A stretch of DNA of 63,544 nt, counting the filler, from Reclinomonas americana ATCC 50394 (lineage: Eukaryota): the NCBI GenBank assembly GCA_048213135.1. It is 11 parts of 11 records of this genome, joined end to end, with 100 filler letters (N's around TTAATTAATTAA, not from the genome) between each part and the next. Parts side by side here need not be neighbours in the genome. Positions count along the whole stretch, not along the records: positions 27,135 to 42,256 come from AFZH01017893.1; 10 more parts are not named here. The stretch is one strand, 5' to 3'. Made by a program: the position numbers and the translations under genes. The notes beneath the pieces were generated by a model. The model did not search any database. It was not told where the DNA came from and saw only the letters and a program-made list of their open reading frames with translations. Of this stretch, positions 19,574-52,935 are shown in pieces (the first letter of the stretch is position 1; every line of letters begins with the position of its first letter).

Positions 19574-22407
19574 ATGGCAGACGTTGCTGCCAGCGACAAT
19601 GTGGTGGTGATTGCTGTGAGCGTGGTCGTTGGCCTGCTCTTTGGACTGTGGTTCCTCTTTAATCGCTTCCGGTGAGCGCCTTGTTTTTTCTTTGTTTTTG
19701 TGTGTGCAGATGTGCACATTCACACACACTTCGCTCCAACGCAAAACTCACCTTCTCTCTCTCCCATTGTCTTCTCTCTTTCTCCCATGGTGTGTGTGTG
19801 TGTACAGTGGTGGCAGCTCGTCGACAGCAGGCGGCTCTGGCACCAAGCAGGCGAGTTCTGCGCACAGCTCGTTGCCAGCAGATGCGCCCTCATTGCCCGT
19901 GTTGTACGGGACGCAGGTGTGTGTGTGTGCACAACCCTCAGTGTGTATGAGGGGAGAGAGGGAGAGGGAGAGAGGAGAAGAGAGAAAGAGAGAGAGCAAG
20001 AACAGATAGTGCATCTCTGTGACACGATCATCTCCGCTGTGGTGAACGAGCGCCCGTGTTGCCCGTGTTGTGCGGGACGCACGTGCGTGTGTGCACAAGC
20101 CTCAGTGTGTGAGAGAGAGAGAGGGGGGGAGACAGAGTGAGAAGATTAAGCATGAACAGTCAGTGTATCTCTGTCTGTGAAAAGATCATCTCCGCTGTGA
20201 TGAAATGAGCACCCTCGTTGCCCGTGTTGCACGGGACGCAAGTGTGTTTGCATGCGCAAGCTTCAGTATGCATGTGTGTGTGAGAGAGAGAGCAAGTAGA
20301 GAGAGCGCATCTCTGTGTGAGAAGATCATCTCCGCTGTGGTGTGAGTCATGACACGTGTTTTTGCACGCACAGTTCGGCACTGCGCAGCGATTTGCCGAG
20401 GCGCTGGCTCGTGAGGGCCGCAAGAACATGTTTGCGGCGCAGGCGGTGGATCTGGCCGAGTACCCGACCGGCTCGTTGTGTGACGAGAAGCAAGTGGTGC
20501 TGGTGATGGCGTCGTATGGCGAGGGTGAGCCGACGGACAATGCGCGCGACTTTTACTCGTGGCTCTTTAGCGACCAAGTCGGGTCGCTGGCCGGTCTCAA
20601 GTACACGCTCTTCTCGCTCGGTGACTCCACGTACAAGCATTTCCACCAGGTCGGTCGCTTGGTGGATCAGCGCCTGCAGCAGCTTGGCGCGCAGTGCATG
20701 TTTGCGCGTGGCGAAGGCGATGCGCATGTGGGGTGCGTGTGGATTGTCGTCTCTTGTGTCGCGCATCCCCACCTGCTCACTGTCTCTCTCTCTTCTGTAG
20801 GCTGGAGGACGATTTCGTGGAGTGGTGTGCGCGAATGTGGCCTGCGTTGTGCCAGCAGTTTGGCACCACATTCACACCTCCCGACGACTTGTTGCGTCCT
20901 CCTGCTTCTTTTTTGCGCTCGTCTTCGAGAACCGACAAAGAGTTGTGCAGGAAACCACTGTACACGATTCGCGAGCTGGAGGAGGAGAACGCCAATGTGC
21001 GCGTGTTCCCCTTCTCCGAGAGCTTCACCTCCAAGTTCCCGTACTGGGGCCGCGTGTTGGCCAACCGCGAGCTGCTGCACACCACCGACGGGCGGTCGAC
21101 GGTGCACGTGGAGATTGAGTCGCCCGGCGTCAACATGCGTTACCAGGCCGGCGACCACCTCGGTGTGGTGCCGGCCAACGAGGACGAACTGGTTGAGCTG
21201 TATGCGCGTCGTCTGGGCGTGGCCGACAAGCTCGATCGCATCGTCATGGTGGACCGTGTGGAAGGTGTGTGCGCAGGGAAGGGAAAAAGGGATGCACGAG
21301 TTGACGCTCACTCCTTTTTTTCTCTGCCGGCAGAGGACCTCAAGAACCTGTTCCCCGTGCGACGCACGACCTACCGCCAGATTCTCAAGTGGTACCTCGA
21401 TCTCACTGGTGTCGCCAAGAAGGAGCTGCTGAATGTGTTGGCGCACTACACGACGGACGAGCGAGAGAAGACAACGCTGCAGCTGTGGGGCTCGACCACG
21501 GAGGAGGGCAAGGTGAGTGTCCCTTCAAAAGTGCTCTCTCCGCATTTTGTTGCTGACGCAAGGGCGGGCTCAGGCGGCATACGATCATCACGTCAAGCGA
21601 CAGTACAAGATCCTGCTGGAGATTCTGCACGACTTCCCTCACGTGAAGCCGGACCTGGGTCACCTGTTCCAGGTGATGCCGAAGCAGCTGCCGCGCTACT
21701 ACTCGATCGGTTCCGACTACGCGGTGGACACGTGGTCGAACCGCATCCAGATGACGGTGGCCGTGGTGAAGCACGTGTCGCCGACGGGCCGCGTCGCCAA
21801 CGGCGTGACGTCGTCGTTCTTGCAGAGACTGAAGCCGACGGTCGACGAGGTGCCGATCTTTGTGAGGAAGAGCACCTTCCACCTGCCCAAGGATCCGTCG
21901 GTGCCGGTGGTGATGATTGGGCCGGGCACGGGTCTGGCGCCGTTTATGGGATTCCTGGCGCGGAGGCAGCATGATGTTAACAAGGGTGAGGGGGGTAGAG
22001 AGGGGAAGAAAGGGGAAGGGGGGAAGAGAGGGGAAAGGGGGTGAAGGGGGAGGGGGGAGAGAGGGGAGGGGAGAGGGAGGTTGAATTAGGGGGAAGAGAG
22101 GGGAAAGAGGTGAGTGAAAGAGTCCTACAGAGGGGACACACCGAGATGAATGTTGTAGGGGCGCAAAGTCATTTTCCTGCTTTGGTGTCTGTTTGTCTCC
22201 TATTATCGTATTAGTATAGAAGGCATGTATGTGATCGTCGGTAGCTGTTCATTGTTGTGCCTTGTGTCGGAATTTGTTCTCAACATCTACAGCCCTTGAA
22301 CAATGTTAGTTGCAATAGAAACAAGAGACCTGTTGGTGATTACTGGTAGCTGAGCTGAAGGAGAAGAGCGCACAGGAAACTTGCTGGTGAACACTGGTTG
22401 CACTTCG

Positions 22408-27032: not shown

Positions 27033-28457
27033 TANNNNNNNNNNNNNNNNNNNNNNNNNNNNNNNNNNNNNNNNNNNNTTAATTAATTAANNNNNNNNNN
27101 NNNNNNNNNNNNNNNNNNNNNNNNNNNNNNNNNNACTCACATTGACAGAACGAGAGGAGACATAGAGCGAGGATGCCATGGACAAGTGAGAGAGAGATCG
27201 TCCATCATCGCCATTCATGTTCATTCATTTCGCGATGTGGGGATCACAGATGGAAAGCGCGTTGCAAAAGCCGACGCGAAGTCGACACACGCAGCGTGCG
27301 CTGGCGCAACTGCGCGGTCGACGAGGTGCGTCCTTGTGCTCTCTCTCTCTCTCTCTCCCTCTCCCTCTCCCCTCTCCCCCCTCTCAACTCCCTCCCGACA
27401 GGGTGTGGGCGACGCGGTTCGCTGCGCTTCACTCTGCGCCTGCTGCACGAGTTGCTGCACGATGTGCCGTTCACGCAGTACATGCTGACTGTGCACTATG
27501 CGCTGGGCGAGGAGGAGTGTCCCGACATGAGTGGCTGTCGCGAGGTGCCGGCGCACGTGGAGGTGTCGCGCGGCCTGGTGTCGCAGTTGTCGGTCAAGTG
27601 AGTGCGCCTTCTCTCCTTCTCCTCCCCCCCTCTCTCTCGCTCTGACGCCTCCACCAGAAACGACGACGGCGAAGAAGATGATGAGTTTGGCGACGGCATG
27701 GACGGCGACTTTGTGGAGGACGACGCGATCACGCAAGAATCGGCGGCCGGTGACGATGACGACGACTTGCGGCTGCTGGGCAAGCACATGCGCGATGCCG
27801 AGTGCATGCTGTGCGAAGTGCAGGAGGCCTCGCAGGGTGGCGAGCCGTGGGAGTGTGTGGTGTGTGAGCAGTTGCGTGCGTGCGACGGGGCGAGGCGAAA
27901 GAAAAGTTCCGCGCGACCGTGGGGCTCACGGCGCGCACAGATGCTCGGTCTCTTATCACGCCCTGTGCCTGGGTCGGGCGGCGCTTGAGCGTGCAGGCTC
28001 CATCAGCACGGCACTGATTCCGCGTCGCGTCGAGTGCGTACTGTGCGGGCAGGAGGAGGAGTGGGGTCGGTGGGTGGCCAATCGGGAGCGTCTGCTCAAG
28101 CGCCGACGAATCGGTGGCCGCTCGTCGCGGCCGCCATCGGCGTGCAGTGATTCGGTCGGGCCACTGCGCGCCCTCAGTCAGGACAACTCGCAGTCGCGGG
28201 TGCGACCGACCCAGGTGAAGGCGACCGCGAAGCCGCAGCCACCACCACCACCACCACCACCTCCGCGGCGTCGATCACCCATGTCGCTGCTCGACGACGA
28301 CGACGACGGTGGGGAGGCGGTGGAGGAGCAAAAGAGGCCCGCGGCGACGAGTAGCTCCTTTGCCGCGCTCCTCTCTCTTGACGACGACGGTGACGAGGAG
28401 GACATGGATGTGCCGCTGGCGGTGCGACTGGCGCGACGTGCGGCTGGCGCTCGGTGA
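26697..28457 (+). CDS. SLX1: Structure-specific endonuclease subunit SLX1 (GIY-YIG plus C-terminal RING-like zinc finger), spanning a gap
   Basis: FVYVL...[23 protein letters not shown]...RPW..V..V.GFPS..AALQ at the N-terminus. C-terminal CxxC..C..HxxCL...LIP...C.LC....W. Confidence 0.92.
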
Positions 28458-28495
28458 AGAAACGAAACAGGGTTTTACACGAGCATTGCGAGATC

Positions 28496-28514
28496 TCATC
28501 GGAGGAACTGGCGG

Positions 28515-28546
<32 letters not shown>

Positions 28547-30232
28547 CTCCAGGTGTGCGTCGTTCTGGTCGCCGGAGGCGCTGCTGCTGCCGTTGCCGAG
28601 GCCGTTGACCGATGACGCGGAGGCGAGGGAGGGCGCCGGATGTAGGTTTCGCGGCACGGGCGGCCGCCATTCCAGCCCGCTGGTGGCGAGCTCGCTCTTG
28701 ATGGGGCACAGCCAGGACCAGGTGTTCATGCCGAGTGTCTCCTTCAGGTTGGCCTTGACGCCGTTGGAGTAGCCGCCGTGAAAGTCGGAGCCCGTGAGAT
28801 CGCCCAAGGTCGATCGGTTGCTCTGGCGGGTTGTGAGTGAAAGAAATAAAGGATGAGAGGTGACGAGCAATGTGCGCGCGCAACAGCCAGCATCTGGAAG
28901 TGGAAAAACGCAAAGGGACCCAGTGCCAGTGCGAACATTGAGACCAGACTGCACAGCACGCGCGCAAGTGAGTGATGGCGAGGGAGAGTGAGCGAGAGCG
29001 AGAGCGAAAGAGAGAGTGACGCAACGCAAAGACGACAATAATCTGTACATTGTGCCGCGGCGTGCTGCGGTCATCGGAACCAGACTGCAGAAACGGCGAT
29101 ACCAAAGTGAGCGGGAGAGGTCTTGTCCACGCACGCAGAAGAAACCCGACTCACCAGGTATTTGATCACGCCAATCAAGTCGGGGAACATGGTCGCAAAG
29201 ACCCACACGGCGGTCAAGGCCGAGTACTGCAACGGGCTGGGGTTGGCGAAGGGAGAGAGGACACAAGCAGGCAGTGACACAGGCGAACACACCATGAGAA
29301 ACAGGAAAAAGAACTTGTGGTTTTGCAGTCCGACACAGTTGACGACCCAGGCTGTGTGTGCGAGGAGGAGTGAGCGAGCCAGGCCGGCATTCAGCAGTCA
29401 TTTTTTCCCATGCGCAACGACAGTGATGGTCCATCTGCAACACGAGGTGAGAAAGCGACTCGCTCCCCCACGAAAAAAACACAGCGAGGAGCGCAACTCG
29501 GAGCACACATCGATTGCACTCGGAGCAGTGGTGCGCCCGGAACGGTTTCGGCCGGTCACATCGTTTGCACTGCCGCAGGAGCACGTAAGACACCAACGTC
29601 AGTGGCAACGACAACGCATTCTCGCGCACGCAACCCATGGACCGCGCACTTCGCCACTGTGAGCACACGGATAGATGAGGCGAAGAAATCATATCGAAAA
29701 CCACACACGCACACATACGCACCCTTCCTCTGCGTCGGCCTCTGGGGCCCACTCGTGAGGCACTGAGACACGAGCGTGGTCAGTGCAAGAGAGAGACAAG
29801 CAAGGCGGACATCAGAGAGGGAGAGACAGACCGCCACCAGGATCCGTCCACACAGTCTGCACGTAGCTAAAGAGTCCGAGGAACGCCAGCACACCGTAGA
29901 TGGCGATGCGTGCGATCGCCCAGCCCTGTGTGCACAACAAAGAGTCAGAATGTGAGGAGGGAGAGAGAGAGTGTGTGAGCGTGTTCACCGGTGCATCATT
30001 CTCCACATAGGCCGTGTACGCCGACAGGTAGCAGTAGACGTAGGTGGCGTAGCTGCGCGATCAGTGAGCATTCTCTTTGTGTGTGCGAGTGTGAGTGTTC
30101 TCCTCGGTAAGACACCACCAACCCGTAGATGCCCGACACCAGTGGCACCATCACAAACGACCATATGGGACGGTATCTGAGGCCGCACCACCAGCGCGGA
30201 CGCACGGTTCGCGGGCCGTCCTCGCGTCGCAT
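28496..30232 (-). CDS. DHHC protein S-palmitoyltransferase
   Basis: TM segments, TDPG, CKRC..KPFRAHHCSECNR, MDHHC-PWVVNCVG..NHKFF.LF, and C-terminal G...NL.ETLG....W..P. Confidence 0.92.
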
Positions 30233-30359
30233 TCCTTCAACACACGAAGAGTCCACGAAGACGTCAGTCTGTCAATCAATGCGTGACGGGACAGCTGAAG
30301 TCTCCCTCCTCCCTCTCTCTCTCTCCTCTGATCCAGATCATAGTTTACTCAAAACACTC

Positions 30360-33300
30360 TCAATCATCCAGCTGCATTTGCCGACTGGCAGCGCTCAACC
30401 GCTGCAGCACATACTCGTGGACGCCCCTCGCTTGGTACACAAGGCAGCGACTGAAACGAGACACGAAAGGACCCAGAAGCCGCTCGACGTACCCCGACGA
30501 CCGATCACCGGCCACAGTCGGCGCGCTGCGACTACCGCGACGGCCCGTGTCATCGGCATCCCCGGCAGCCGCCGTCTCCGCAGCAATAGCGGCGGCCGCA
30601 GAGGCGCGACGGGCACTTACTGGCGCACCACCGCGGTCGCTGTCAGCGTCAACTCGCCACACGCGGACGCAGCTGTCATCGCAACAGCTGACGATCCGCG
30701 TACCTTCCGCACACACGGCCACTCCCGTAACTCGGCCGTCGTGCCCGACGAGCTGACCGCGTGGTACGAGCTCCATCACGCCATCGAAGTGCTGCTCGTC
30801 GGCGTCGATATCCTGCCACATGCGTACTGCACGGTCGTTGCCGCCCGTGACAATGCAGCGTGTGCCGTCGGCCAATGTCGCAAATTCCACGCATCGAATG
30901 GCTTCACGATGCACATGATGCGCCAGCCACCGTCGGCGTATCGTCGCTCCATCTGCGCCAGTCATTGTCCACTCGGACAAGTCGCCATTCGAGTGGCCAC
31001 ACAGCAGACGCTCCTCATCGTCTCGAGAGAGCACCAAACTCAGCACCCGGTCTTCCACTTGCTGCGCCGACACTTGCTCCCTGCGTGCCAACGACCACAC
31101 TCTCAACATCAAGTCGTCGCCGCTGCTGATCGCCGAGTCGCCACGTTGCGACACACACAGTGCGCGCACCGGTGTGTTACACATGCGAGTTGCGCCGCCC
31201 TCCTGGACTTCGATGCAGTGGTCTCCGAGCGCTGCAAGCTCAATAGTACCTGCAGCATCGATGGGGACATCAATATCGACTGCAAGTCGGCCGTCTGGAA
31301 TCTCGCCAACAGATATCGTGCCGTCCAGGCTGCCGCACACCACCAGTCGTCGTCCATCTGCGGCTTGGACGGCATGCGCACAAATGACAGCGTCAGTGGG
31401 ACCGACAAAGCGGCAGCGCTCAGTGCCGTCCTCCACCAGCCACACTCGCACTGTCCGATCACTGCTGCCGGAGACCACGAGTGCACCGTCGAAAGCGAAA
31501 GACAACGAGTTGATTTCGCCCGTGTGACCAGCCAGCTGACGGAGCAGGTCACCGTCATGTAGCGTCCAGATGGCCACTGTATTGCTGTTGACGACACCGG
31601 CCACATGCTGCAACGGTCCTTCGCCAGACATCGTCAGCGCGACGGGTACGGCATTGGTGTCCAGACGACGGCGACGGCGGCGAAGGTGTTCCGCTGTCGA
31701 CCACCGGCGCACGCTGTTATCTGTACTGCCGCCACTCACAATGAACTCGCCATCGTAGGTGGTGGTCAGTGAGGTGACTGGTCCTAGGTGCCCGTCAAGA
31801 GTACACAGCAAATCCCAGTTCTCGGTCCACACGCGAATCTTGTTGTCGACGCAACCGCCACTGAGGAGAAGGCCACCATCTCGAGTATAGGTCAGTGCCC
31901 GCACCGAACCTTGCGCCGCGTCGAACTTGGAAACCACGCCTCTTGCTGCCAGGCTAATGCGCAGTATCTCGCCGTTCTCGAAGCCGACAGCAAACACATC
32001 TGGATCTGGTCCCGGCGACAGGGCGATGCAATGTGCCGAACTCCGACGCTCGACAGGCGGCGGCAAACAGAGCAGTTCCATGGCCATGCCATCGCTGACT
32101 TGCCACACGCGAACATATCCGTTCTCGTAACCCGCGGCAACGTATCGACCCCTCGGCCACATGGCCACACACAGTACACAACCAAAGGAGTGCGGATCCT
32201 GCGATCTACGCATCTCTCTCGATTCGCACGGCAGCTTGTCAAGCGCCCAGATTCGCACAGATCCGTCGTCGCTGCCACTCACGAGAGTTGTGTCGTTCGC
32301 CGATAGCGCGATGCATCGCACTGCGCCTGTATGTCCCCTCAACAAGAACCATTCAGCGTGCGTTCCGGCCGCCGCAGTCACGTCTCTCTGGTCTGCTGTC
32401 GTACAAAAATAGCCACGGATCGTCTTATCGTTACAACCGACAATTACTCGCTGACTGTCGCCAGTGATGGCGATGGCATGAACGGCATTTCCACAGGGAA
32501 TAGCGTCAAGCTCAGCAGCATCCGCGGCCAGCCACAATCGGGCGGTGTGATCAAAGCCACCCGCCGCGACAATCCGACCATCGAAAGACGCGGCAACTGA
32601 TGTCACTCCTCGCTGGTGACCCTCGATTGGCATCGGCTGCAACTGTGCTCTATTGAAGTCACAGTAGTTCAGGTCGCTCTCGTCAATGTACGCATGGCGA
32701 ATGTTGACGCGCGCAAGGTCGCCCCGCTGCAGCCGAGTGCGATGCATGACGACATGACTGAGGTCGGCGCCACGGAGCCGCACTTCCTCCAGATCGCGCG
32801 CGCTGAATGAAATGCCGGCCGCACACAAAACGCCAGCAGCGCTAGCCGCCGCACAGACTATCGGTTCGGCATCACTCGACCTGGAGAGCTCGACAATCCG
32901 CCACACTTTCTCCTGCACGGACACATCGCGACGAATGCGATCGGCGATGAACATAATAATGGAGTCGAGTGACTGTTCAGTGCACATGTGAGCGACCATA
33001 ACATACAACAGGAACAAAAATGCGTGCGCCAAAACGCTGTTCACCTCGTCAGAGCGCGTCAGCAACCTGTCACTGAGGATGCGCTTTGGTTTTTGCAACA
33101 AATGCTGAATTACACAGTCCAGGTCTGTCGACTGGGACATCATGTCGACCACCGCGTCAACCTCCTGGAGCCACATGTCGGCAGCAAAGTACTCCAAAAA
33201 GCTCTTGTGCGTGAACTCGACCACGCACGAATCTAGATTGTACCGAGACACCCACTTCAGGAGCGCCTATTATGTTTGTTCGTCAGCAGGTGCATGAAGA

Positions 33301-35674
33301 CGCATGCTGCAATCGATAAGGTCTCACCGCACGGATGACAACGTCAGTCTTCGGTTCCTTTTGCCCGACCGTGAACCGTTCTCTCCACAGCTGATCCGCG
33401 TACTCATCATTCATCCACTTCACCAACTACACATGCAAGAAAGTAGTCATTAGACAGCGGGCAGTACACCGAAACACTTAAAACTTGACCACACAACATA
33501 AGGGTCCATTGTCGTGACACGGCGACACATGAGTTCACCAGCGAGCGAACGGCAGAATTCTCGAACTTGCAGGTCAAACTCCCCAGCACCACCTTCTACA
33601 AATTGCTGCAAACAAGAGAGATAAGTGCAGAAGAGATGACACAATACGACTATTGCAGGCACTCACCGCTGCAATGTCCGTCTCAAAGTGCTCGACTTCG
33701 TGAATAATACGCCGATCCATGAAGACACGATACAGATCGGCGCGAGTGACTCTTCGCCGCCAGTCCTCACGCGCCAGATCATCGCTGACGCGCACAATCA
33801 TTTGAAGCATGATAGGCTGCGGACCGGCAGTAATCGAGTGATTATGAAGGCAGTAACAGAGCCACCACCAATTAAGGGATTTCCATACCGATTTCGCCAG
33901 ATCAGCCAAGCCGGGAATGCGATTGATCTGCTGCTGACGACGATCGTGCATCAGCCGGTCTTCGTGGTGCTGCTCGCAATACCTGGTCCAATACGACAAC
34001 TATTGGCCACCACTTCCTTTCAACAAGAAGTCGACAGCACAGCAACAACGCAACTCGAGCAGAAACCGTCCAACGTCTGTAAAGGAGAATGGACGAAGAG
34101 CACAAGTGAGAAGAAGTGTCTTGTCTCGGGCCGCGGCGTCAATCTCAGTTGCTGGAGTCAACGCCACATCCAAAGGATCAAACCGGCTTGTCCACTGCCG
34201 ACCAAGACGACTGATGAATTCACGGCGGACAGAGACGATGAGCCGCAAATTTGGGAAGTTCTGGATCGCACGCACAGATGAGTAAGAATCCTGCGCCGGC
34301 AGGTCAGAATGTCGGCGTCGCTCTGAACGCACCTCCAAATTGTGGAAACGATAAAGGTTGTCCGGCACCGGGCACTCGTCGAAGCCGTCCAGAATCAGCA
34401 CAATCCGCTGACACTCGGACAACTACGCTCGGAACCGATTCACAGCTGTTAGAAATATCGATTCTCGCTCACGTGCATTGAGCAGCGCAAGCACGCACAT
34501 CTTCGCACTCGAGCCTCAGTCGCCGATCCACATCGCGAGTCGCACACTCCAGCATATGCGGCACCAAGCGACCTCGTGTGTGAAGCACATCTTGCGGAAG
34601 GACACACAGTCGCTCTCGCAAGACCAACATGTTGGTGTTCTTTTCCGGATCGGTAAAGCGCTTGTACATCTTGCTCAAGAGCGTGGATTTGCCAGCACCC
34701 GACCAGCCCACCACCACAGCCACCTGTGTGTCGAAATGCGCATCATGAGTAACACCACACACAAGAACACATATAAACTTTGCGGAGTACGCACGCGATC
34801 AGTTGGCCTCTGACCACTGTCTTCGACAAATCGCGAAAGGAGCTCATCTGCAAGCGTGTATTCGGCGTCAAGTTTATCAGCCTCGTCAACCGATTCGTTG
34901 GCGAATACGTCGATCTGTGTCACACACGACGACGCAAGCAGCATGGTTCAGCACAAACGCGCAGCATGCCTCCGCGCACACAGCGATACGTGTACACCGA
35001 ACCAGTGTTTCCTGCTCTTGCTGCACGCTGGCCACTTCCTGTTCGGCATTCACGCGAAGGCGGACTTGCACTGCGCGAATGGCAGCAAGCTTCTCTGCCA
35101 AAGATACCACCGAGGCCACGAGCCACACATTGCCGGCAGCCTGCACAGCATGACCACGGCAGGTGAGAAGAAGATGCTTGCCCAACGCTGCAGCACAACG
35201 TGCGTATGTCACGCACCAACAGGTCTTGAATCTCAAACAGCTGGTCCGGCTTCATGTCAGCATCAAAGCCGTCCACGATCAGCACAATGCATCGAGTGAA
35301 GCGCGCATTTCCTCGCACTCCCGCCAAAGTGGGACACAGTTCTTGCTTCAGCAGCTTCTGCCCTCGCGGCAAGAGACTGTTGATGCAGTCTAACACATAC
35401 AAAAGCAGCTGGTGTCGCTCGCCGAGGTTTCTGATGTGCGACAGTCGCTCTCGAAAAACAATTGTGTCGACGCTCTCGAATGGCGGCTTCCTTCCTTGCC
35501 GTCGACGCTCGCGAGAGCTCAGCTGCTGAAACTCAATGCTCTCCGTCACGAGCTTTAAGTACAAATGGTCCAGCAATAGAGATTCACCACCATCGGGCCA
35601 GGGCGGGGACACAATCAGCTGTGGCACGCACAGCCAGGCAATGAAGTGAGCTCGAGATATGCGCACCTCCAGAC

Positions 35675-35719
<45 letters not shown>

Positions 35720-36100
35720 CGCACGCACACACACAAAATCGCTCACTACACTCTGTCACACAAACACACCCTGTCGGCTATCGTTGCGTCAGCAGCAGGG
35801 ACTGTGCTGGCTTGTACCAGGCGAGTGCGAAGTGCATCTACTGCGGCAGCAAGAGGAGTGCCCAGATCCTACACGAGAAAAAAGAAGTGAGTCACAAAAT
35901 GCATGCAATTTCACGAGGCTGGAATGCCAAGACAAAACACGTACCAGGGGTTGTCGCTGCTCTGGCGTCAGGAAAGCGAACTGCCTTTTGCGTACCGTGG
36001 TCAGCTGCCTGGAAAATGACGAGCCACCACCGCAAAGGCGTACGCGTGTTCGAAAATGTGAGCGAGTCGACATGCACATTTTCCCTGTCGGCTGCTGCGC
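30360..36100 (-). CDS. NLR-like STAND module B: pseudo-NACHT + NACHT + pentapeptide repeats + WD40
   Basis: Walker A VVVGWSGAGKST (~34685-34717), Walker B IVLILDGFDE, LIVSVR, P.ML, FTHKSFLEYFAA and pentapeptide DLEEVRLRGADLS. Many GH..V...A.S.DG...SG..D..VR.W repeats lie in a single ~2.9 kb exon ending at 30360. The 5' boundary is uncertain and the module could be fused to module A. Confidence 0.82.
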
Positions 36101-36324
36101 GTGTTGCAGCGCGTAAGTGGCAGGCACAGAGTGCACAAGAAAATCTAGAAACAGCACCTTAAAGAAATGTGCACTGTAGGTGCGCTCACGACGACAACAA
36201 AAAAGTTGTGGAAGCGGACAAGATCGAGTTCGGTTCCGCACTGTCGTGTTTGTCGCGTCTGACAACGGCGTGCACTTCACTAATGTCAGGCTCATTGCAC
36301 TCGGCCGAGTCCCCGAGAGGGCCC

Positions 36325-39300
36325 TCAGTCCAAAGCAATGTCCCGCGAGTCGGGCGCGGCGACGCCAATCACGCGAAGCAAAGTTCCCGACGCCACACAC
36401 CACACGCGGATCGTCGAGTCGTCACCAGCGGAGACCAGTCGCTGGTGCCCAGCGCTGTCTTCGACAAATGCAAGACCGCAGAGGGTCGCCGCATGACCGC
36501 GGACAGCTGTTGATGCTCCACTCTCCACATCGATGAGGCGGACAACACCAAAGCCGGCGGCAACGGCAATCACCACTCGTCCTTCCGCCGACGAAAAGGC
36601 GGCAGCCAGCGACGTGACCCCGATCCCGGCACACGCGTTCGGATCCACGAGTGGTCCAACTCGTCGACTGAGTGCACCATTCTCACGACTCCAAACACAC
36701 ACCATACCGTCGTTGCCACCGCTAAAGACAAGGGTCGAGTCCGGGGAAAAAGGCCACGGTACTGACTGGTAGTGAGTGACACCTGTGTTCAGCTTCCAGC
36801 GAGACGCTGGTACCAGTTGAGCCATTCGAGAGTAACCACACCATCACACGCCTGTCGGCACCTCCACTGACAACAGAAAAACCATCAACAGATATGGCAA
36901 CGGCTGTCACGGGAAGCATGTGACTACCGAGCAATTGAGACTCGGCGGCACCCGGGGCGACGTTCCACAATCGTACAGTGCAGTCGTCGGAGCCGCTTAC
37001 AAGCCGGCTCCCGTCGGCAGTGAATGCCAACGCACGCACACGGCGGTCGTGACCAACAAGAACACGCTCATAATGACCATCGTCAACTACCGAGTAGACG
37101 TGCAACTCGATCCGAGAATCTCGAACCACAGCAAGAAAAGTGTGGGATGACGTCGACGCGCAGGCAACAGCATGTGGGAAAGGCGAACAACGGTCGATGG
37201 GCAACAAGTACCGTCTAATGCGACCATCCGCCAGCGACCACAAGCACACACCGTTTTGAAAATCGGCGCTGCAGACGAGATCGGCGGCTCCACTGCCGGT
37301 CATCGTCAACATCTTGCCGAGTTTTGGCTGCGATCTGCGCATATCCGACGCCAGCAACAGAGGCCACAACCGTACGCTCGGGTTGCCACCGGTTCCAGTA
37401 GCAAACCAGCGACTGCGGGGTGACACAGCAATGGCGGTGACAGGGCCCTCGTGGCCACTGAATACAGACAACAGGCGACCCGACTGCAAGCACCAGATGC
37501 GCACGACTCCGTCACAGCGCCCGCCGCTAATGACGTGGCGGTCGTCTGGCGTGATGGCAACCGAACATGCGCCTCGGTGGTGGGCTTCAATGACATGTTC
37601 CACGCTCAGTCGGTGCACGCTCCAGATGCGCAGTGCACCGCCGTCATCTGCACTAGCTGCAATGAAATGCGACTGGCACAGCGCCACAGCCGACACAGGA
37701 TATGCGTGGCCTTCCAGCACCGCTGGCTCAGAGAAGCTGTCCATGCGATGCAACCGTACAGCACTGTTGGCGCACCCACTAATGACAAGTGGAAGGCGGT
37801 TGCCACCAAACACAATCGAGACTGCAGTGATCACGGCGGAGTCGTCGCGAAACATCGCCCGTGGCTCATGCCGCGTAGCAGCTGAAACCGTCGACCACAA
37901 CTGCAGCATACCGTCCGTGAAGCCAACTACAACGAAGAAACCGTCGGCCGTTGCACTCACACATGTGATAGATGCGTTGCAATGCTGGTCTGCTGAAAGG
38001 AGTCGGCAAGGCTTCGTGAATTGTGGCAGATCACTATCAGCTGCGTTCGCAGTACAATTCTGAACAGAATACACCGCCACGCGGCAGCTTCTCGTGTCAC
38101 CAGCTAAAGCCGCCAGGCCAGTCACAAGTCTAATGTCCCCGCGATCAACACAAAAGGCAGCGGCAGTCACGAATGGGTCCGCCAACTCGACACGCGCGAT
38201 TTCATCACGTGTGATGACTGACCAGACGCGCATCTCCTTGTCTCGCCGAAAATATAGATCACCCAAATGACCACAACAACTGAGAAGCGTGTTGTCTCCA
38301 AACGCTAGAGCCGTAACTGCTGACACGTGTCCGCGCATCGGCTCGGCCGGCAGGACGCAATCGGTGAGATTGCACCCTGAGAGGTTGGCCTCACGACAGA
38401 ACGCCTGTGACAGATTGACTGCCCGCAGGTCGGCTCGTTGTAACTGCGTCCGATGCAACACTGCGTCCCGCATGTCAGCGCCGCAAATACGGACTCCTCG
38501 AAGGTCGCGACCGGAGAACGCCACTTGCGCCACGCTGAGTATCGTGGCCGCATTGGCAGCCGCAACAACAACACAAGGCTCAGGCTCCACATCTTGGACA
38601 GCTCTCGACAGCAATATCACACGCCAGAGGCGCTCCTGCAGTGCGCTGGATGCGCGCACAGAATCAGCAATGTACGTCACCAGGGATGGGTGTTGTTGAA
38701 TCATGTTGGACTTGGTGAGAACGCTTCGCCGCACACGTTCTACGGTGATATCCTCGGCGTGCTCGAGCTGAAACACATCACAGGCGACGAAATGCTCCAG
38801 GAACGACGCATGGCAGAACTTCCACCAACGCTCGCAGAATTGTAGCAATGGACAGCAGTTGCGAATGGCCAGCTGCTCCCTCGCATCCGAAAAGAACTCG
38901 CGCCTCAGACTCGCCTCGTCAATGTTGTCACTCGAGCAGCGTACTTCAGTCAGGCTCGCTCGAAACATGGCACGTGCAAGGCGGACGAGGAACTCGTGAC
39001 ATTGCTCCACAGATGGCACGTCAGCCGCAGCTGCAGCTACAGCTGTGTACTGGCGACGGGCGTGCGAAATCCACTCTTCCACACAACGGTCGTAGATGTC
39101 GCGCGGCAACAACTGGCATCCACGTTTTGGCAAGTGCGGCAGAATATCGACGGCCATGCCGAAAAGCAATGGAGTCGACGACAACGCATCGATGCGGTCA
39201 CTTTCCTGCAGCGCCTTTCGGTAATTCTCCGTCAGACGCCATGGCGAGCCAGCGGGAAATGAGTCTCGCACCACGTGCACATACTGCTCCAGAAACATGT

Positions 39301-40626
39301 CAATTTGTTGCTTGCCGAGCGGCAGCAGTCGGCACTCGGTCAACTCCCCCTCTTGTAACGCGGCTGTCCTGTCGAGAGGAGCGAAAAATCGAGGGTAGTC
39401 TGTGCCACCGGTTCCCAGCCTGGCTGCATAGTCCGAGCGACAAGTCATAATGACCTTGATATCGGCGAATCGGTGCAGCTGTGCGTGGGGAGGGAAACCA
39501 GGTGAGCGATCTAGAACTACAGTGTTCTCGACTCACAATCGGCGGCTTCTTACTTTGTTGGAAACAAACAGGTTAACCGAGAGACCACGCTCGTCGTATC
39601 CGTCAACAAGGAGGAGAACTGGAATATCGCGCAGTCGGCGGGCAACGGCGTCTGGCTCTGCCGCCTCCCGCGTTGACGGCATCCGCTCAGCCACTGCTTC
39701 CTCCAGAAGCCGTCGCTCCAGCATCTCCGGGCGTATGTGCGTCAATTGTACCAGCAGCGGTAGTCGAGAAGTAGCGTCACCTGTCCATCGCTCACCGACA
39801 CTCTCTGCCACCTGCAATAGCGCAGTTGACTTTCCAGAACCGCTGTCACCGAGGAGGAGCAGCACTTGCTTGTCATCGCAGGCCAGAAAGCGGTCGACTT
39901 CATCGATAAAACGGCAGTGTACTTCCTCTGACGGCACGTCGCACATAAGTGGAACGTGCACCGAGTGCCGGACGTACGCAGCCGTCGGCGACTTGGTATT
40001 CCACGATTCGCGTATGAAGTCAACCTCGCACTCCACCAGCTCATTTAACTGATCGTGCACTGTAAGTGTGCCTGCGGTGAGTAAGTCGTCAACGATACAC
40101 GAGAGCATAAATATCCACGCAACAGAGTGCTTCGCTCTCCAACCTGGCCAAGTACTTGTCAACTGGCATTGAAAGCCGCTGAAGCCACCGACACAACTTC
40201 CCAATTCGGCTCTTGCGTGGATCGCCGCCAATGTATCTTCGCACTTCGAGTGCCGACGCCATGTGAATGCCTTTGTCGGGGTGAGCAAACTTGTTTCGAA
40301 AATCTCGAAGTTTCTTCACCGCCTTGAGCTGCACATCGCAGGGTAAGTGCCGAAAACGTTAACGTAGCGACTGGTATCCACGGCGAATCGCTAACGCACC
40401 TCGAGAGCGTCAGTGAGTAGGAACGCGTCAGTTCCGTCACTTGCTCGCAGTCCTCCATAAAGTAGAATGGAAGACAAGGCAGTCAGGTCAAACCCCGAAC
40501 ACGGCGGTGCACTCGTCCTATCAGCGTTGAACGCTGTGCTCCACTCTATGACGTGCACGTACTGCTTTGCATCCAGCTTCACGACGCCGTCTCGGCCACG
40601 TGGCCTGAATCTGCACATACAAACAT

Positions 40627-40715
<89 letters not shown>

Positions 40716-41292
40716 ATCAACAATTGATCATGACGCAGCGTGTACCAAGTGCATGGGACTGTAACTTTTCTGGAATCTTGCCCTTTGGACGCCACGCTTC
40801 AACGACGTCCATATCAGGGTGTTCCGTGCAGAACTCGGGAAGTCGCTGTTGCAGGCGGCTGGCAAGGGCTTCAGTGGCGATCTCCATGGCCACAAGAAGC
40901 CGCTGATAATGCAGTCGCCTGCGAAACACGACAATCATCAAGCGCAGAAGTGATACACCGGCACATGTGCGCGTACGTACCCTCCTCCATGCAAATCCAA
41001 CAAGTCCACCGTCAACACCAACTCATCCGGGCCCACAGGAACCACCTGCATCTGCTCGAGAGTCTGATCCCTTGCAGTGGCAAACACAAAGGCTTGCTTC
41101 TCGCTTTGCACTCGCATCCGGTCAGGAGCAATAGGCAACAACAGCTCAGCCTCGAGCAAGTGCGCTGCCTTCTCCAGCAACTCGCCGACCAACATTTCTC
41201 GCGTGGCATTCTCCACTGTCACGCTGACACCCTCGTCAGAGTCCTCCAGTTCGAACCGAATAGGGAACTGGCGCGAGAAGTGAGAAACACGT

Positions 41293-41325
<33 letters not shown>

Positions 41326-41350
41326 GGCGGACACCACACGCACGCACCAT
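36325..41350 (-). CDS. NLR-like STAND module A: N-terminal domain + HEPN + NACHT + pentapeptide repeats + WD40, with one frameshift near the 3' end
   Basis: An ATG micro-exon at 41348-41350 splices to FPIRFE. HEPN-like YQRLL..A..AL / FDLTALSSILL / LRDFRNKFAH (RNKFAH at 40281-40298). Walker A LLLLGDSGSGKST (~39827-39850), Walker B LLLVDGYDE, KVIMTCRSDY, TPLLF, FCHASFLEHF, pentapeptide DLRGVRICGADMR, then WD40 repeats. A +1 frameshift lies at 36747-36751. Confidence 0.85.
40618..40713. repeat. (CATA)n/(CA)n microsatellite in an intron of the HEPN region
   Basis: Perfect CA dinucleotide run preceded by CATA units. Confidence 0.95.
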
Positions 41351-41514
41351 CTTGTCAGACCGTCGTTCTTGTCAGAGAGAGTGCGATGGGACAGGACTTG
41401 ACAGGACCTTGTTGCTCACGCGCTGTGAGCTCCTTCCTCTCCCTCTCTCTCTCTCTTTCTCTCTCTGCCTCTCTACCTCCCTCTCTCTCTCTTTGCGGAT
41501 CCACCAAAAAAAGA

Positions 41515-42137
41515 ATGACGACAATGCGCGGGCAGTCGTGGATTGTCGCACTGCTGCTGGTGCTTGTGCTGCTGCTGTCACTCGCACAACTGCAGGGATG
41601 CACAGGTGGCGCAGTGTCATCGGTGCGTGAGCTTGTGAAGAACGAAAAAAGTGAGAGTGTGCGCGCGTGTGCAGAGAAGGCGGCAATTGCGGTTTGCGCG
41701 CACGCACAGACACCCCGCCTGCTGTCTCCTCTCTCTCTCTGTGCGTGAACACCATCACCTCGGGGAGTCTCTTTGTCTCTCTCTGTGTATGTGCGTGCAT
41801 GGCGGCAGTTGTCTGACACTCTTTGTGCGCACTCGCACACGTGTACTCGTCCCTCTCAGTCCGACGACAACAATGACGACGACAACAGCAGTCACCACGC
41901 ACACCACAGCGACAACAATGACAATGCTCATAGTCATCATCATCATCATCATCATCAGTCATCGGTTTGCCTTCTCTACGTACACGTGTATATATGACTT
42001 GTCCTCAGTTGGGTGGGTCTGTCTCTCTCCAGCAGCAGCAGCAGCAGCAGCGAGTGGCCACGCAGTCGGACTCGTACTACGTGGTGGACTATGAAGATGT
42101 TGCGCTGTGCAATGACTTGTCGGAAAAATGCGCAGTG
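41515..42137 (+). CDS. Putative secreted protein with Asp/Asn/His-rich segment; truncated by gap
   Basis: Signal-peptide-like MTTMRGQSWIVALLLVLVLLLSLAQLQG. Later candidate exons read SDDNNDDDNSSHHAHH..HHHHHHHQSS and QQQQRVATQSDSYYVVDYEDVALC. Confidence 0.45.
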
Positions 42138-42155
42138 CCTCTCATCACTCTCTCC

Positions 42156-42252
<97 letters not shown>

Positions 42253-42356
42253 CTCTNNNNNNNNNNNNNNNNNNNNNNNNNNNNNNNNNNNNNNNNNNNN
42301 TTAATTAATTAANNNNNNNNNNNNNNNNNNNNNNNNNNNNNNNNNNNNNNNNNNNN

Positions 42357-45983: not shown

Positions 45984-46789
45984 GTGAGTCTCTTGTATGT
46001 GTGCATTTGATGCATGATTTCTCCTCTCTGCTCTCTCTCTTTCTCTCTCCCTGTGTGCTTTCGTGCTTCTCAGCGTGTCTGCTTCTCCGCGCCTCTTTCA
46101 GGCTCATGGAGGCGTCTCTCCTTCTCCTCTCTGCTCTCCCTTTCTCTCTCTCTCTCTCTCTCTGCGTCTTGGTCTCTCTCAGTGCCTGTCTGCCTCGCCC
46201 CGTGCCTCACTCAGACTCATGGAGGCATCTCTCCTTCTCTTCTCCTCCTCTTCTCTCTCTCTCTCTCTGTCTCTGTCTCTGCATGGGTGTCTCTGTGCTT
46301 GTTTGTATATCTGCCTCGCTCAACACTTCTCTCTCTTCCCTCCCCCCTTTTCTCTCTCTCTCTCGCAANNNNNNNNNNNNNNNNNNNNNNNNNNNNNNNN
46401 NNNNNNNNNNNNTTAATTAATTAANNNNNNNNNNNNNNNNNNNNNNNNNNNNNNNNNNNNNNNNNNNNGAAGGGGGAAGAGAAGGGGGAAGAGAAGGGGG
46501 AAGAGAGAGACAAAAAGGGAGGTAGAGGGGAAAAGAGGGAAGAGCAAGGGGGAAGAAAAGGGATAAGAGAAGGGATAAGAGAAGGGGGAAGAGAAAGGGG
46601 GAAGAGAAAGGGAGAAGAGAAGGAGGAAGAGCAAGGGGGAAGAGAGAGACAAAAGCGAGGCAGAGGGGAGAGGGGAGAGAGAGTGGGAGAGAAGGAATGG
46701 AGGGAGAGGCAGAGAGACAGAAAGAGAGAAAGGAGAGAGAAAATGAGAGAAATTGGAGAAAGAGTCCAACAGAGAAGGGGACGAAAGTG

Positions 46790-49700
46790 AAGAGAGAGAA
46801 AAACGAAACTTGAAGCGCGGAGACGGAGTGGCGATCACGCTGCCGCTGCAAGACGTGTCGACAATGACAAAAGGCGCGACGAAGGAATTGCCGAGATTTG
46901 ACAACTCGGTGCCTGTCAATTTCAGAATCTCTATCGTGCGACCCGATACGAGCTCCGCGCTGACAGTCGTAAAATCGCCTGCAAACACGCAACGAATAAG
47001 CGAAATAGGACACTTAGAATATCTCGCGCACGTGCGTGGAGCTTACCAGCCGATAATACTCCCGCCAGCATGTAGAACAGCGAGTCGGTTGTGTACCGCG
47101 CACACAGATAGAATCTGTGTGTCATCTTCCATGAGCAACACACAACGACAAAAACCATAAGAGTGAGGCGCAACTTTCCGGCAGACGGCGACCCGCTCAG
47201 AGTGAGTACATGAGTCGCCCCGGGGGCCGTCGACACTGGCGTCAGGGTGGGATTCGCAAGGAATGTTCCCGACTCGCATGTGGTGGAGGAGGCGATGGCG
47301 TATCGCGCTCCGTTGGTGGTGTCGCTCATGTCGGGCATCGAGCAGCCGTTGATGTTGAGAGTGATGGTGCCGACTTGCGAGGCGCGGAAGGTGTTTGGCG
47401 AAATGTACATGACGGCGGGGCCCACCTGCGGAAAAGGGGGAAGGGGAGATGAGGGAAGGGACGGGAAAGGGGAAGATGAGGGAAAGGGGAAAGGGGATAT
47501 GAGGGAATGGCAAAAGGGGGAGATAAGGGGAAGGGGGAGATGAGGGAAAGGGGGAGATGAGGAAAAGGGGGAGAAAGGGGGAAGGGGGGATATAGGACAC
47601 AAGGGAAAGGGGGGCAGGGAAAGGAGGAGATGGGGGAAAGGCGAAAAGGGGAGATAAGGGAAAGGGTTAGAGGGAAAGGGGTAGAAAACGGAAAGGGGGC
47701 AGGGGGCAGGGGAGAGATGAGGGAAGGGGGAGATGAGGGAAGGGGGAGATAAGGGAAAGGGGGAAGAAGAAGGAGGATGTGGAAAAGTGGGAGATGAGAG
47801 AAGGGAGGAGATGAGGAAAGGTAGAAAGGGGAAGAGGAAGAGGGAAAGGGGGTGATGAGGGAAAAGGAAAGAAGGAGATACGGGAAAGGGAAAGGAGGAG
47901 ATGAGAGAAAGGAGGAGATGAGGGAAAGGGGACGAGGGAAGGGGGACATATGGGAGAGGGAGAAAAGGAAAGGGAGAAAAAGGAAAGGGGACAGAGAAGA
48001 GAACGAGAAGTAAGAGGAGTAAACAGCATGGGGAGAGAAGAGAAGAGGAGAAGGACGAAAATAAGGAGAGGGAGGGAAGTAAGAGGGATGACAACAACGG
48101 CGTGGAGTGGGGCTAGGGGAGCTTGAGCAGGAGAGGAAAGAAGCAAAACAAAAGAGAAGGAACAGTGAACCGTTCTCTGTGTGTGACGTACCGAGACGAA
48201 TCGCACACCGAATTGAGTTGAGTCGTACATCAGCAGCGCTCCCGTGGCATTGTGTCGTGAAATGGACTGCATTAAGGGTCAGACGTGCACTACATACGCG
48301 TGGATGCTCGGAGACACACACACCGAAATGGACTGGAAGCGCGCAACCGAGTACGCTCCATCGGTGTATGCGCTGTTGCCGAACGAGCCAATGTACGACA
48401 TGTAACCCGAATGATCGGTGGAGATTACTTGGGCAAATGAGTTTGTCTGTGCAACGAGTCGTTGAGCGTAAGGACAATGTAGTGGAGTGCAAATGGGAGT
48501 GCGCACCTCATCGCCAATCACCAAGTCACCGGTGGTCATCAATGCAAGACCTCGACCTGCATGCAGTGAGGTGAAAAGAGGAAGGAGCATGTACATCACT
48601 GGATCTTTCACGAAACTCGCAGTGAACAGATCGAGACCCAAATCGCAGGTAGTGGGCGGGACACACGGGTTGAATGTGCTCGGGGTGCTCGATTGACCGG
48701 CGAGCACCGTCCAGGCGTTGGAGATGTATTTGAGTAATCTCCCGGTGGCTGAGGTGGGAGACAAGGGACAAGGGTGGGAAAGGAGAAGGAGGTGGAAACA
48801 GGGAGTGAAAAATGAGGCAATGAGTGAACGGCGAGAAAAGCGGAGGGAGATAGAAAGTGGACAGTTGCAGCAGAAGAGCGATGCCAGGAGATTGACAGGG
48901 CGAAGGAGAGAAAAGAGAGGGAAAAGAGAAGTTACATGAAGAGACGAGGATGGGGAAGTGTTAGAGAAAGAGAAGTGAGAACTGAGACGGAGAGGAAGAG
49001 AACCAGACGGATAAGTGAAGAAAGAGGAAGAGAAGGGAGAAGAGGGAAGGGGAGAAGGAGAAAGACGAGGGAGGGTCAAGAAGGGAGAGAGAGAAGGAGA
49101 GTAAGAAGAAGAATGGTAGTTGAGGACTGAGACTGCCGGAAAGAGAAGAAGACGGGAAGTGAGAGAGCGAGCGGCAACAGAGAAGGAGTTGAGGACTGAA
49201 ACTGAATGGAGCACAGGAATACTGAAAGAGAGAAAAAGTAAGAAGAAGAGAGTGAGGGCCCAACAAGAAGTGAGAAAGATACGAAGAAACGCTGGAGAGA
49301 AATGGTGAACACACAGAGAGAAGGAGAAGCACAATTAAGTGAAAGTAGAGAAGGACAGGTACAGCCACAGTACAAACAGGAAGTCCCAGCACACTCACAT
49401 AGGTCGACCGTGTACAGCGCGTATCCGGCAGACACCTTGCGAACCACCAATTCTGTGTCACGAGTGTGAGAGACGCACACGCAAGGCAGAATCACGAATT
49501 TGAACGTACGCAACGAGAGAACTCGGGTGTCGCTGCACCAGGCGGCGTCGGCAGCGTTTCCACCTGGCCGTCGGTGTTGGACCAGTCGGCGAAGCGAATC
49601 ACCGACGTTGAGCCTTGCCTGTCGTGAATGTAGAGCGTACTCGAGGCCTCGTTGACGGCAATTTGCCTAATGTCCGTAAACGAGGATTGGGTGAGTCGAC

Positions 49701-51560: not shown

Positions 51561-51842
51561 GATGCGATTGGAAGAAGTGACGAATATGTGCAGAGGGTGG
51601 CGCGTGGCTGAGATTTCATAGCTACACACAAGAAGGGAAGAGGAAGAGCGGCATACAACGGATTTCGGGTGCACTGGCGGAAGAAAGGAAGACGGAGAGC
51701 GGGCGACAAGGATGTGAGAGACGAGAGAAAACATAAAGGTTCTTTCTTTTTCTGCTTGGCTACAGCGGAACAAACTAGAAGGCGACAGAAGAAGGGCGGA
51801 CGAAGGCAGAAGGCTTCTCCGCCTGGCTCTTTCTCTCTCTGA

Positions 51843-51900
<58 letters not shown>

Positions 51901-52104
51901 NNNNNNNNNNNNNNNNNNNNNNNNNNNNNNNNNNNNNNNNNNNNTTAATTAATTAANNNNNNNNNNNNNNNNNNNNNNNNNNNNNNNNNNNNNNNNNNNN
52001 GCCAGTGCGAGGTTGGAAGGGGGAGGAGAGGGCGACGGGGGCCTGGATGGAGGGGAAAGGGGAGAGAGGAGAAGGGTGGTTGGAAGGGAGACGAGAGGGA
52101 AGGA

Positions 52105-52870
52105 GAGAGAGAGAGAGAGTGAGAGTGAGAGAGTGAGGAAGGGAGGGACTGAGTGAGTGAGAGAGAGAGAGAGTGAGAGGGAGAGAGTGCAAGTGAGTGA
52201 GTGAGTGAGTGAGGGAGGGAGGGAGGGAGTGAGTGAGTGAGTGAGTGAGTGAGTGAGTGAGAGAGTTAGTGAGTGAGAGGGCGAGAGAGAGGGAGTGTGT
52301 GCAGTGAGTGAGTGAGTGAGTGAGTGAGTGAGTGTGTGAGTGAGTGAAAGGGAGAGAGAGAGAGTGAGTGAGTGAGGGAGTGAGTGAGTGAGTGAGTGAG
52401 TGAGAGAGTGAGTGAGTGAGGAAGGGAGGGACTGAGTGAGTGAGTGAGTGAGAGTGAGTGAGTGAGTGAATATAGGAAGAGGGAGGGAGCGGGTGAGTGA
52501 GAGAGAGAGTGAGTGAGTGAGTGAGAGAGTGAGTGAGTGAGTGAGTGAGAGAGAGAGAGTGAGTGAGTGAGTGAGGGAGAGAGAGAGAGTGAGCGACTGT
52601 GAGAGAGAGAGAGAAAGAGTGAGAGAAAGTGAGAGAGTGAGTGAGTGAGAGAGTGAGTGAGTGTGAGAGAGAGAGAGTGAGTGAGTGAGTGAGTGAGTGA
52701 GAGAGAGAGGAGTGAGTGAGTGAGTGAGAGACACAGAGAGAGACAGAGTGAGTGTGTGTGTCTGACAGAGAAAGAAGAGTGTAAGAGAGTGAGTGAGAGA
52801 GAGAGATTGAGAGTGAGTGAGTGAGCGAGAGAGCGAGAGTGAGAGTGAGTGAGTGTTCGAGAGAGAAGAG
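52105..52870. repeat. (GAGT)n/(GA)n low-complexity microsatellite tract
   Basis: Roughly 750 bp of interleaved GAGT and GA units. Confidence 0.95.
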
Positions 52871-52899
52871 TGTGACTTTTCTTCGCGTTCGTTCACTCA

Positions 52900-52935
<36 letters not shown>

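Follow-up and report, generated by a model that had tools for sequence, protein, structure and literature searches.

A degenerate half-copy of the NACHT nucleotide-binding domain in the 5′ part of a predicted NACHT-pentapeptide-WD40 gene of Reclinomonas americana

In the genome of Reclinomonas americana ATCC 50394 (assembly GCA_048213135.1), record AFZH01017893.1 carries two tandem genes that resemble those of NOD-like receptors (NLRs). We analysed them as part of a window, by which we mean the whole stretch of 63,544 nt under study, made up of 11 joined parts that are not necessarily genomic neighbours; positions 27,135-42,256 of the window come from this record. The window is eukaryotic in character, with short GT-AG introns, and its reading together with Pfam scans identifies both genes as NACHT-pentapeptide-WD40 genes on the minus strand. 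They lie head to tail, with only ~245 nt of spacer between the stop codon of the first gene at 36325 and a candidate ATG of the second at 36079. The tandem pair must be old, since the NACHT halves of the two genes are only ~25% identical. The subject of this report is the 5′ part of the second gene, where a set of exons resembling the first half of a NACHT domain precedes the exons that encode an intact one. Positions are those of the window, and features are on its minus strand unless otherwise stated.

According to our gene model (Table 1), exons 1-7 consist of whole codons and all junctions are in phase 0, and exon 8 ends in phase 2. We refer to the spliced exons 2-4 (35868-35003) as unit 1 and to the spliced exons 5-8 (34914-34055) as unit 2. 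Unit 2 has the hallmarks of an intact nucleotide-binding domain (NBD), namely a Walker A motif (GWSGAGKST), a Walker B motif (IVLILDGFDE) and a sensor-1 Arg (SVRRE), and it scores 50.9 bits (E = 9e-18, Z = 1) against a family hidden Markov model (HMM) built from seven sequences that include neither unit. Because introns split the domain, its single exons give weak Pfam scores: exon 6 alone yields generic P-loop matches with E values of 0.003-0.1, and the read-through open reading frame (ORF) of exon 8 matches Pfam NACHT with E = 0.0071. Further downstream, the long exon 33266-30363 encodes pentapeptide repeats (PF00805, E = 5.6e-9) followed by WD40 propellers (PF00400, E = 2.6e-66).

Local alignment of the two spliced units (Smith-Waterman, BLOSUM62) reaches a score of 99, with 40 identities in 114 aligned pairs, and pairwise blastp of the degenerate against the intact unit gives E = 3e-8. 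Shuffled versions of unit 1 score 31.9 on average (standard deviation 5.0, maximum 57), and none of 2000 attains the observed value (z = 13.5). Three motif blocks are collinear within this single alignment. The first pairs LIVSPPWPDGGESLLLDHLY, starting at 35618, with VAVVVGWSGAGKSTLLSKMY, starting at 34723; 7 of 20 residues are identical and the Lys is replaced by Glu. The second pairs IVLIVDGFDA (35288-35259) with IVLILDGFDE (34404-34375), with 8/10 residues identical, and the third pairs NVWLVASV (35131-35108) with NLRLIVSV, with 4/8. These are the blocks that an earlier note, made from the DNA alone, had picked out, and each lies on the minus strand where that note had put it. Two introns also occupy exactly homologous positions in both units, each in phase 0, one after ‘DR’ ahead of strand 1 and the other after DLL/NLE ahead of strand 4. 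The alignment score relative to shuffles, together with the shared positions and phase of these introns, establishes homology rather than chance resemblance. Compared on their own, exon 2 and exon 5 show no significant similarity (268 of 2000 shuffles score as high).

Comparisons with other members of the family place unit 1 in the same register. In a MAFFT alignment with seven family rows, PWPDGGES lines up with the P-loop and DGFDA with Walker B. The same placement is reached independently by hhalign, run with unit 1 against a family profile from which both units were excluded (E = 6.6e-4, probability 27%). The family HMM assigns 13.0 bits to unit 1 from Walker B to strand 4, which exceeds the best of 500 shuffles (7.3 bits). 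It is hardly conceivable, then, that an unrelated open frame merely came to resemble NACHT motifs. Such an origin would be in keeping with the failure of exon 3 alone to match any Pfam family at E ≤ 1 or any database protein, but it is refuted by the shuffle tests with unit 2 and with the independent HMM, and it would leave the collinear blocks and the coincidence of two introns in position and phase to accident. Exons 1, 2, 4 and 5, each searched separately, likewise match no Pfam family at E ≤ 0.1. The nearest language-model clusters of exon 3 are NPHP3_N/NACHT/AAA at 0.80-0.86, below the 0.9 line, and serve as a lead only.

At the DNA level, collinear similarity survives only in short patches (23/26 at Walker B, 17/19 at RERL, and 18/22 across the boundary of exon 6 and intron 6 of unit 2). 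These patches and the shared introns point to an old genomic duplication of exons and not to a retro-copy. Unit 1 scores 99 with unit 2 and 35-60 with the NACHT of the neighbouring gene and six database relatives, and the scores of unit 2 with the same seven sequences range from 42 to 119. The seven other family members have D at the P-loop position where both units have W, other residues in place of their RERL, and DGYD in place of their DGFD. On these shared residues, and with unit 2 as the best partner of unit 1, we regard units 1 and 2 as sisters. They go back either to a partial duplication inside the gene or to unequal exchange with a sister tandem copy that no longer exists.

Exon 3 carries two insertions of 20 and 13 amino acids relative to the intact unit. 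Unit 2 has an additional intron, intron 6 (34498-34423), and the 13-residue insertion of unit 1 sits at that exact spot. The 18/22 DNA match (35345-35270 against 34530-34385, both minus strand) crosses the boundary of exon 6 and intron 6, lies in a different frame in unit 1, and has a blastn E value of 0.087. The insertion and this match are suggestive, and no more than that, of an ancestral intron part of which may have been exonised in unit 1 after loss of its donor.

The residues on which catalysis depends have disappeared from unit 1. In place of the Walker A consensus GxxxxGK[ST], represented by GWSGAGKS in unit 2, it has PWPDGGES, so that Lys is changed to Glu and two of the three glycines to Pro and Asp. 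Its Walker B (consensus hhhhDGxDE) keeps the first Asp, and the second acidic residue is Ala (IVLIVDGFDA). At the sensor-1 position within WLVASVVSLA there is Val by pairwise alignment or Ala by HMM alignment, compared with the Arg of SVR in unit 2 and of the family consensus scRs. A P-loop nucleoside triphosphatase (NTPase) that has lost the Lys and glycines of Walker A is, as is well established, unable to bind nucleotide in the normal manner, and pseudo-active sites are familiar from other duplicated ATPase domains, for example the degenerate nucleotide-binding sites of ATP-binding cassette (ABC) proteins. Judged by its residues, the upstream unit, if it is expressed, is catalytically dead. 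Both the duplication and the inactivation are almost certainly real.

The copy is also incomplete. Unit 1 covers strand 1 to strand 4 only, and the tail of exon 4 together with exon 5 matches nothing beyond strand 4 of NACHT, so that unit 1 lacks a complete NBD as well as the helical and winged-helix subdomains. The term ‘pseudo-NACHT’ under which the earlier note had introduced this element is thus an overstatement, half a domain being present. A single-sequence AlphaFold2 model of the upstream unit is of low confidence, with a mean predicted local distance difference test (pLDDT) score of 41.9.

Despite these losses, unit 1 looks like coding sequence. Read in frame 0, its exons are free of stops over 213 codons; the other two frames contain 11 and 6. 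We scored codon usage with a measure trained on the two long WD40 exons, taking 2000 composition-preserving shuffles as the null. Exons 2-4 score 0.257 in frame 0 and are negative in the other frames, and no shuffle scores as high; the corresponding values are 0.281 for unit 2 and -0.087 for introns plus spacer. Exon 3 considered alone scores 0.197, in frame 0 only, again with none of the 2000 shuffles as high. The open frame and codon score, with the loss of all four aligned catalytic features, bear out the earlier description of a duplicated, inactivated NTPase core that has retained its frame.

Splice signals have persisted as well. Introns 1-3 are of the GT-AG type, measure 76-151 nt, and carry CTCAC 19-28 nt from the acceptor; a branch-like CTNAY motif is found in six of introns 1-7, against an expectation of 0.26 per 35 nt. 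The two units are by now only 50.6% identical in nucleotides. Over 114 codons the nonsynonymous divergence (dN) is 0.70 and the synonymous divergence (dS) 1.27, with synonymous sites saturated; the ratio averages both lineages and is uninformative on the copy alone. As the open frame, the GT-AG introns and the codon bias have been kept in the face of such deep divergence, translation is favoured over a long-dead relic. Intron 2 contains a (GA)n microsatellite of ~40 nt (35730-35680), which accounts for its length of 151 nt, double that of the gene's other introns (71-88 nt).

From these features we infer that unit 1 is translated and gives the receptor a non-catalytic extension at its N-terminus, a reading to which we give even chances. 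On this reading, an old partial tandem duplication copied exons at the 5′ end of an NLR-like STAND (signal transduction ATPase with numerous domains) gene of the NACHT-pentapeptide-WD40 type. The upstream copy, exons 2-4, would then have been freed of the constraints of an NTPase and have lost its P-loop glycines, Lys, second Walker B acidic residue and sensor-1 Arg, with the constraint to be read as protein remaining in force. The likeliest course is in-frame splicing of exons 2-4 to exon 5, an arrangement that would set the extension in the slot usually taken by the N-terminal module of an NLR. Since it could neither bind nor hydrolyse nucleotide, switching would fall to the intact NACHT downstream, and any role of the copy would be steric or regulatory.

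Several observations weigh against translation of this kind. At the local stop density of introns and spacer (0.026), the probability of such an open frame arising by chance is ~3.5e-3, which is small, not overwhelming, and the codon score of the half-copy may in part be inherited from its ancestor. The join to the gene body is weak: the donor of intron 4, GTTCGG, is atypical even as the best in-frame one available, and, alone among introns 1-7, this one lacks a CTNAY motif. Within the same intron lies an ATG (34944-34942) in frame with exon 5, use of which would give a short N-terminus without the copy, as is typical of the family. The 5′ end of the model is also insecure. Exon 2 has no ATG of its own and a stop on its 5′ side, so that it needs an upstream exon, for which candidate exon 1 could supply the start codon; exon 3 has no usable ATG either. 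The codon score of candidate exon 1 is -0.077, a value equalled or exceeded by 688 of 2000 shuffles, and is thus not coding-like. Given a 9-row alignment that includes true NACHT sequences as guidance, AlphaFold2 returns a low-confidence model (pLDDT 57.6, predicted template modelling score 0.42) with only two strands of 2 residues each.

Nor does the half-copy have relatives that would attest to its maintenance. It is present in one of the eight family members inspected (this gene, its neighbour, and six database proteins with one domain each). A phmmer search with exon 3 against 1.84e9 representative proteins found no match at E ≤ 0.001, none of 239 candidate relatives among longer proteins reached E ≤ 0.01, and none of 271 pattern matches in metagenome contigs was confirmed. 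Because the copy is without relatives, conservation by selection cannot be demonstrated.

Part of this evidence would be accommodated if unit 1 were a relic that is not transcribed or not translated, with the gene starting at ATG 34944 (MLLASSCVTQ, then exon 5) and exons 2-4 residing in the 5′ flank or 5′ untranslated region. We think this somewhat unlikely. The in-frame ATG, the weak intron 4 and an exon 1 that does not look coding all fit such a relic, as do the loss of every NTPase motif and the want of relatives, and clusters of NLR genes commonly harbour gene fragments. A relic so diverged that dS is saturated should nevertheless have lost its coding and splice signals, and this one has 213 stop-free codons in one frame against 11 and 6 stops in the others, a codon score that equals the intact unit's, and, in introns 2 and 3, GT-AG ends with branch-like motifs at the ancestral positions. 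In addition, a second ATG in intron 4, at 34967, is out of frame and lies 20 nt upstream of the proposed start.

The weak junction admits another partition of the locus, in which exons 1-4 form a small gene of their own that encodes a stand-alone protein of ~300 amino acids with a dead half-NBD, ending at a stop at 34889, and the NACHT-WD40 gene is independent. The frame that reads through intron 4 is indeed open as far as 34889, and ATG 34944 could serve the downstream gene; but the segment read through lacks a coding signature (codon score about 0, at about -0.03), the two transcription units would overlap, leaving space for neither a promoter nor a 3′ end, and donors in phase 0 and in frame are present at the end of exon 4. 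We consider a separate gene very unlikely.

If unit 1 is instead an N-terminal extension, as we favour, the question of its function follows. The earlier note had suggested an integrated decoy for pathogen effectors or a brake on oligomerisation, and these ideas have no evidence behind them here; the copy was seen in one of the eight family members inspected, and no relatives turned up elsewhere. A selected module of either sort, that is, a decoy for effectors aimed at the nucleotide-binding domains of NLRs or a brake acting in cis on the oligomerisation surface of the NACHT, is unlikely, although some features speak for it indirectly. Unit 1 has preserved its hydrophobic strand positions (LIV, IVLIVD and WLVASV) as well as the helix that follows the P-loop, and has lost its catalytic loops, as would be expected of a pseudoenzyme that maintains its fold; in the model it sits in the receptor's N-terminal slot; and there are functional plant NLRs with two NB-ARC domains (bioRxiv 10.1101/2024.08.30.610185, PMC4917536). 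On the other side, no relative searched shows conservation and no confident fold is obtained; the copy is missing strand 5 along with the helical and winged-helix subdomains, which makes a native-like NBD surface doubtful.

The decoy version meets a further difficulty, in that this domain comes from the NBD of the receptor itself. Known integrated decoys mimic effector targets unrelated to the NLR core. Nothing in the analysis supports this idea specifically. With the same low expectation, one may picture a translated and selected pseudo-NTPase, derived from the receptor itself and serving as its N-terminal module, that would keep the fold's hydrophobic strands. It might act as a brake, released on activation, by capping in cis the face through which the intact NACHT oligomerises, or it might cluster on assembly and so provide an induced-proximity output.

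Tandem nucleotide-binding domains have precedents in plants. Rice Pib has two NB-ARC regions that arose by partial duplication, with an intron at the same distance after kinase 3a in each and the kinase motifs kept in both (PMC4917536). As there, the N-terminal part of the NBD (kinase 1a/2/3a, or Walker A to the sensor region) is found in tandem within one gene and intron positions coincide, two of them in the present case. In contrast to Pib as described in that paper, a plant NB-ARC protein with coiled-coil (CC) and leucine-rich repeat (LRR) regions and highly conserved motifs, ours is a NACHT gene of a protist with pentapeptide and WD40 repeats, its first copy is motif-less, and its expression is predicted only. 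The plant setting of NB-ARC with CC or Toll/interleukin-1 receptor (TIR) and LRR domains is altogether missing, the domain being NACHT-like.

In wheat, the functional NLR WTN1 carries two NB-ARC domains (bioRxiv 10.1101/2024.08.30.610185), Arabidopsis Col-0 has four genes in which NB-ARC occurs twice, RPP2A among them (PMC7747988), and the RefPlantNLR collection includes NLRs with multiple or truncated NB-ARC domains (PMC8559963). Our predicted gene, with its weak join, would share with the WTN1 and RPP2A type the presence of two nucleotide-binding domains in one receptor. Those are plant NB-ARC proteins that are experimentally functional or annotated from transcripts, and the accounts cited mention no motif-less half domain in first place. 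The Arabidopsis paper also mentions a cluster with ‘degenerate P-loop motifs’ (PMC7747988), which resembles unit 1 in the loss of Walker A residues and in which the proteins have been retained. Among receptors with degenerate P-loops and pseudo-NTPases in general, the degenerate domain is the only NBD, and a complete one, or else a full-length partner domain; unit 1 differs in being truncated and additional to an intact NBD that follows it.

By overall architecture the gene belongs with the NACHT-PPR-WD40 NOD-like receptors of the Mortierellomycota and Mycoavidus type (PPR, pentapeptide repeat; PMC11291939), having a NACHT, then pentapeptide repeats, then WD40 propellers. The best database relatives of the whole gene include proteins of Mortierella and Linnemannia, at 26-33% identity over the region after the NACHT. 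It departs from them in this distance, in its many short introns, and in the predicted extra half-NBD, all six database relatives checked having a single NBD. A narrow phrase search of the literature returned no description of a tandem NACHT in one protein; such phrases there refer to NACHT-NACHT contacts between protomers or to several genes per genome. Receptors with tandem NBDs are already known in plants, and what appears to be new here, going by the residues of the predicted protein, is a first copy in a protist that is of NACHT type, truncated and fully degenerate.

Should unit 1 be expressed, the tandem-NBD receptors that work in cereal immunity would have a counterpart of NACHT type outside plants, and the gene would offer a clean example of how exon duplication and the loss of catalysis can turn part of an NLR's core into its N-terminal module. 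Should it not be expressed, unit 1 would be one of the usual products of unequal exchange among NLR genes arrayed in tandem, and would serve chiefly as a warning for gene prediction that an in-frame relic with a coding appearance can be stitched onto a real gene.

Table 1. Features of the two tandem genes, with positions in the window
Feature	Position	Strand	Basis or remarks
Upstream tandem paralogue (NACHT, pentapeptide, WD40; single NACHT)	36325..40315	-	From ~40315 to stop 36325; used for comparison
Second gene, carrying the half-copy in its 5′ part	~36079 to 30363	-	Boundary reading and Pfam
Exon 1, candidate, ATG at 36079; 45 codons, Arg/Ser-rich; least certain exon	35945..36079	-	Open frame, phase 0 to exon 2
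Intron 1	between exons 1 and 2	-	GTACGT...TAG, CTCAC branch-like motif
Exon 2, stretch of the degenerate unit ahead of the P-loop; last residues ‘DR’, as in exon 5	35770..35868	-	Boundary check and unit alignment
Exon 3, degenerate half-NBD core: PWPDGGES (35603-35580), IVLIVDGFDA (35288-35259)	35217..35618	-	Alignments
Intron 3, 76 nt, GTGCGT...CAG, CTCAC 23 nt from 3′ end	35141..35216	-	Positional homologue of intron 7
Exon 4, strand-4 equivalent NVWLVASV (35131-35108), then Ala/Gln/Glu-rich tail	35003..35140	-	Tail no longer NACHT-like
Intron 4, would join the degenerate unit to the gene body; weakest junction	34915..35002	-	Donor GTTCGG, no CTNAY
Exon 5, family-conserved segment ahead of the P-loop strand	34795..34914	-	By eye like the same segment in P0004 and the neighbouring gene
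Exon 6, intact Walker A GWSGAGKST (34708-34682)	34499..34723	-	Motif and weak Pfam match
Exon 7, intact Walker B IVLILDGFDE (34404-34375)	34333..34422	-	Motif
Exon 8, strand 4 and sensor-1 Arg (LRLIVSVRRE), NACHT continuation	34055..34260	-	Motif and profile
Rest of gene	30363..33982	-	Exons 33982-33889, 33816-33667, 33605 onward (next one or two boundaries unfixed), long exon 33266-30363

The peptide encoded by candidate exon 1 (35945-36079) is rich in Arg, Ser and Thr and has no acidic residue in its first 39 positions, which gives it the look of a targeting or low-complexity leader. On the opposite strand, six plus-strand ORFs over 33640-36159 match no Pfam family, and Rfam gives no match over 33000-36500.

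Elsewhere in the window, positions 46400-53000 hold several kilobases of purine-rich low-complexity satellites, comprising units like GAAGGGGGAAGA, a 750-nt GAGT array (52105-52855) and CT runs, with a GC skew of 0.33-0.42; the long ‘ORFs’ of this region are probably repeat artefacts. Walker A motifs in open frames on the minus strand at 59380 (GGPGSGKS) and 56109 (GLPGSGKS) may mark other P-loop genes, and the ORF 59129-59629 matches no Pfam family. Domains of housekeeping type are encoded at 12835-13665 (SRAP, minus strand, E = 2.7e-16), 20625-21971 (FAD_binding_1, plus strand, E = 1.1e-25) and 28499-29779 (DHHC palmitoyltransferase, minus strand, E = 1.7e-6).

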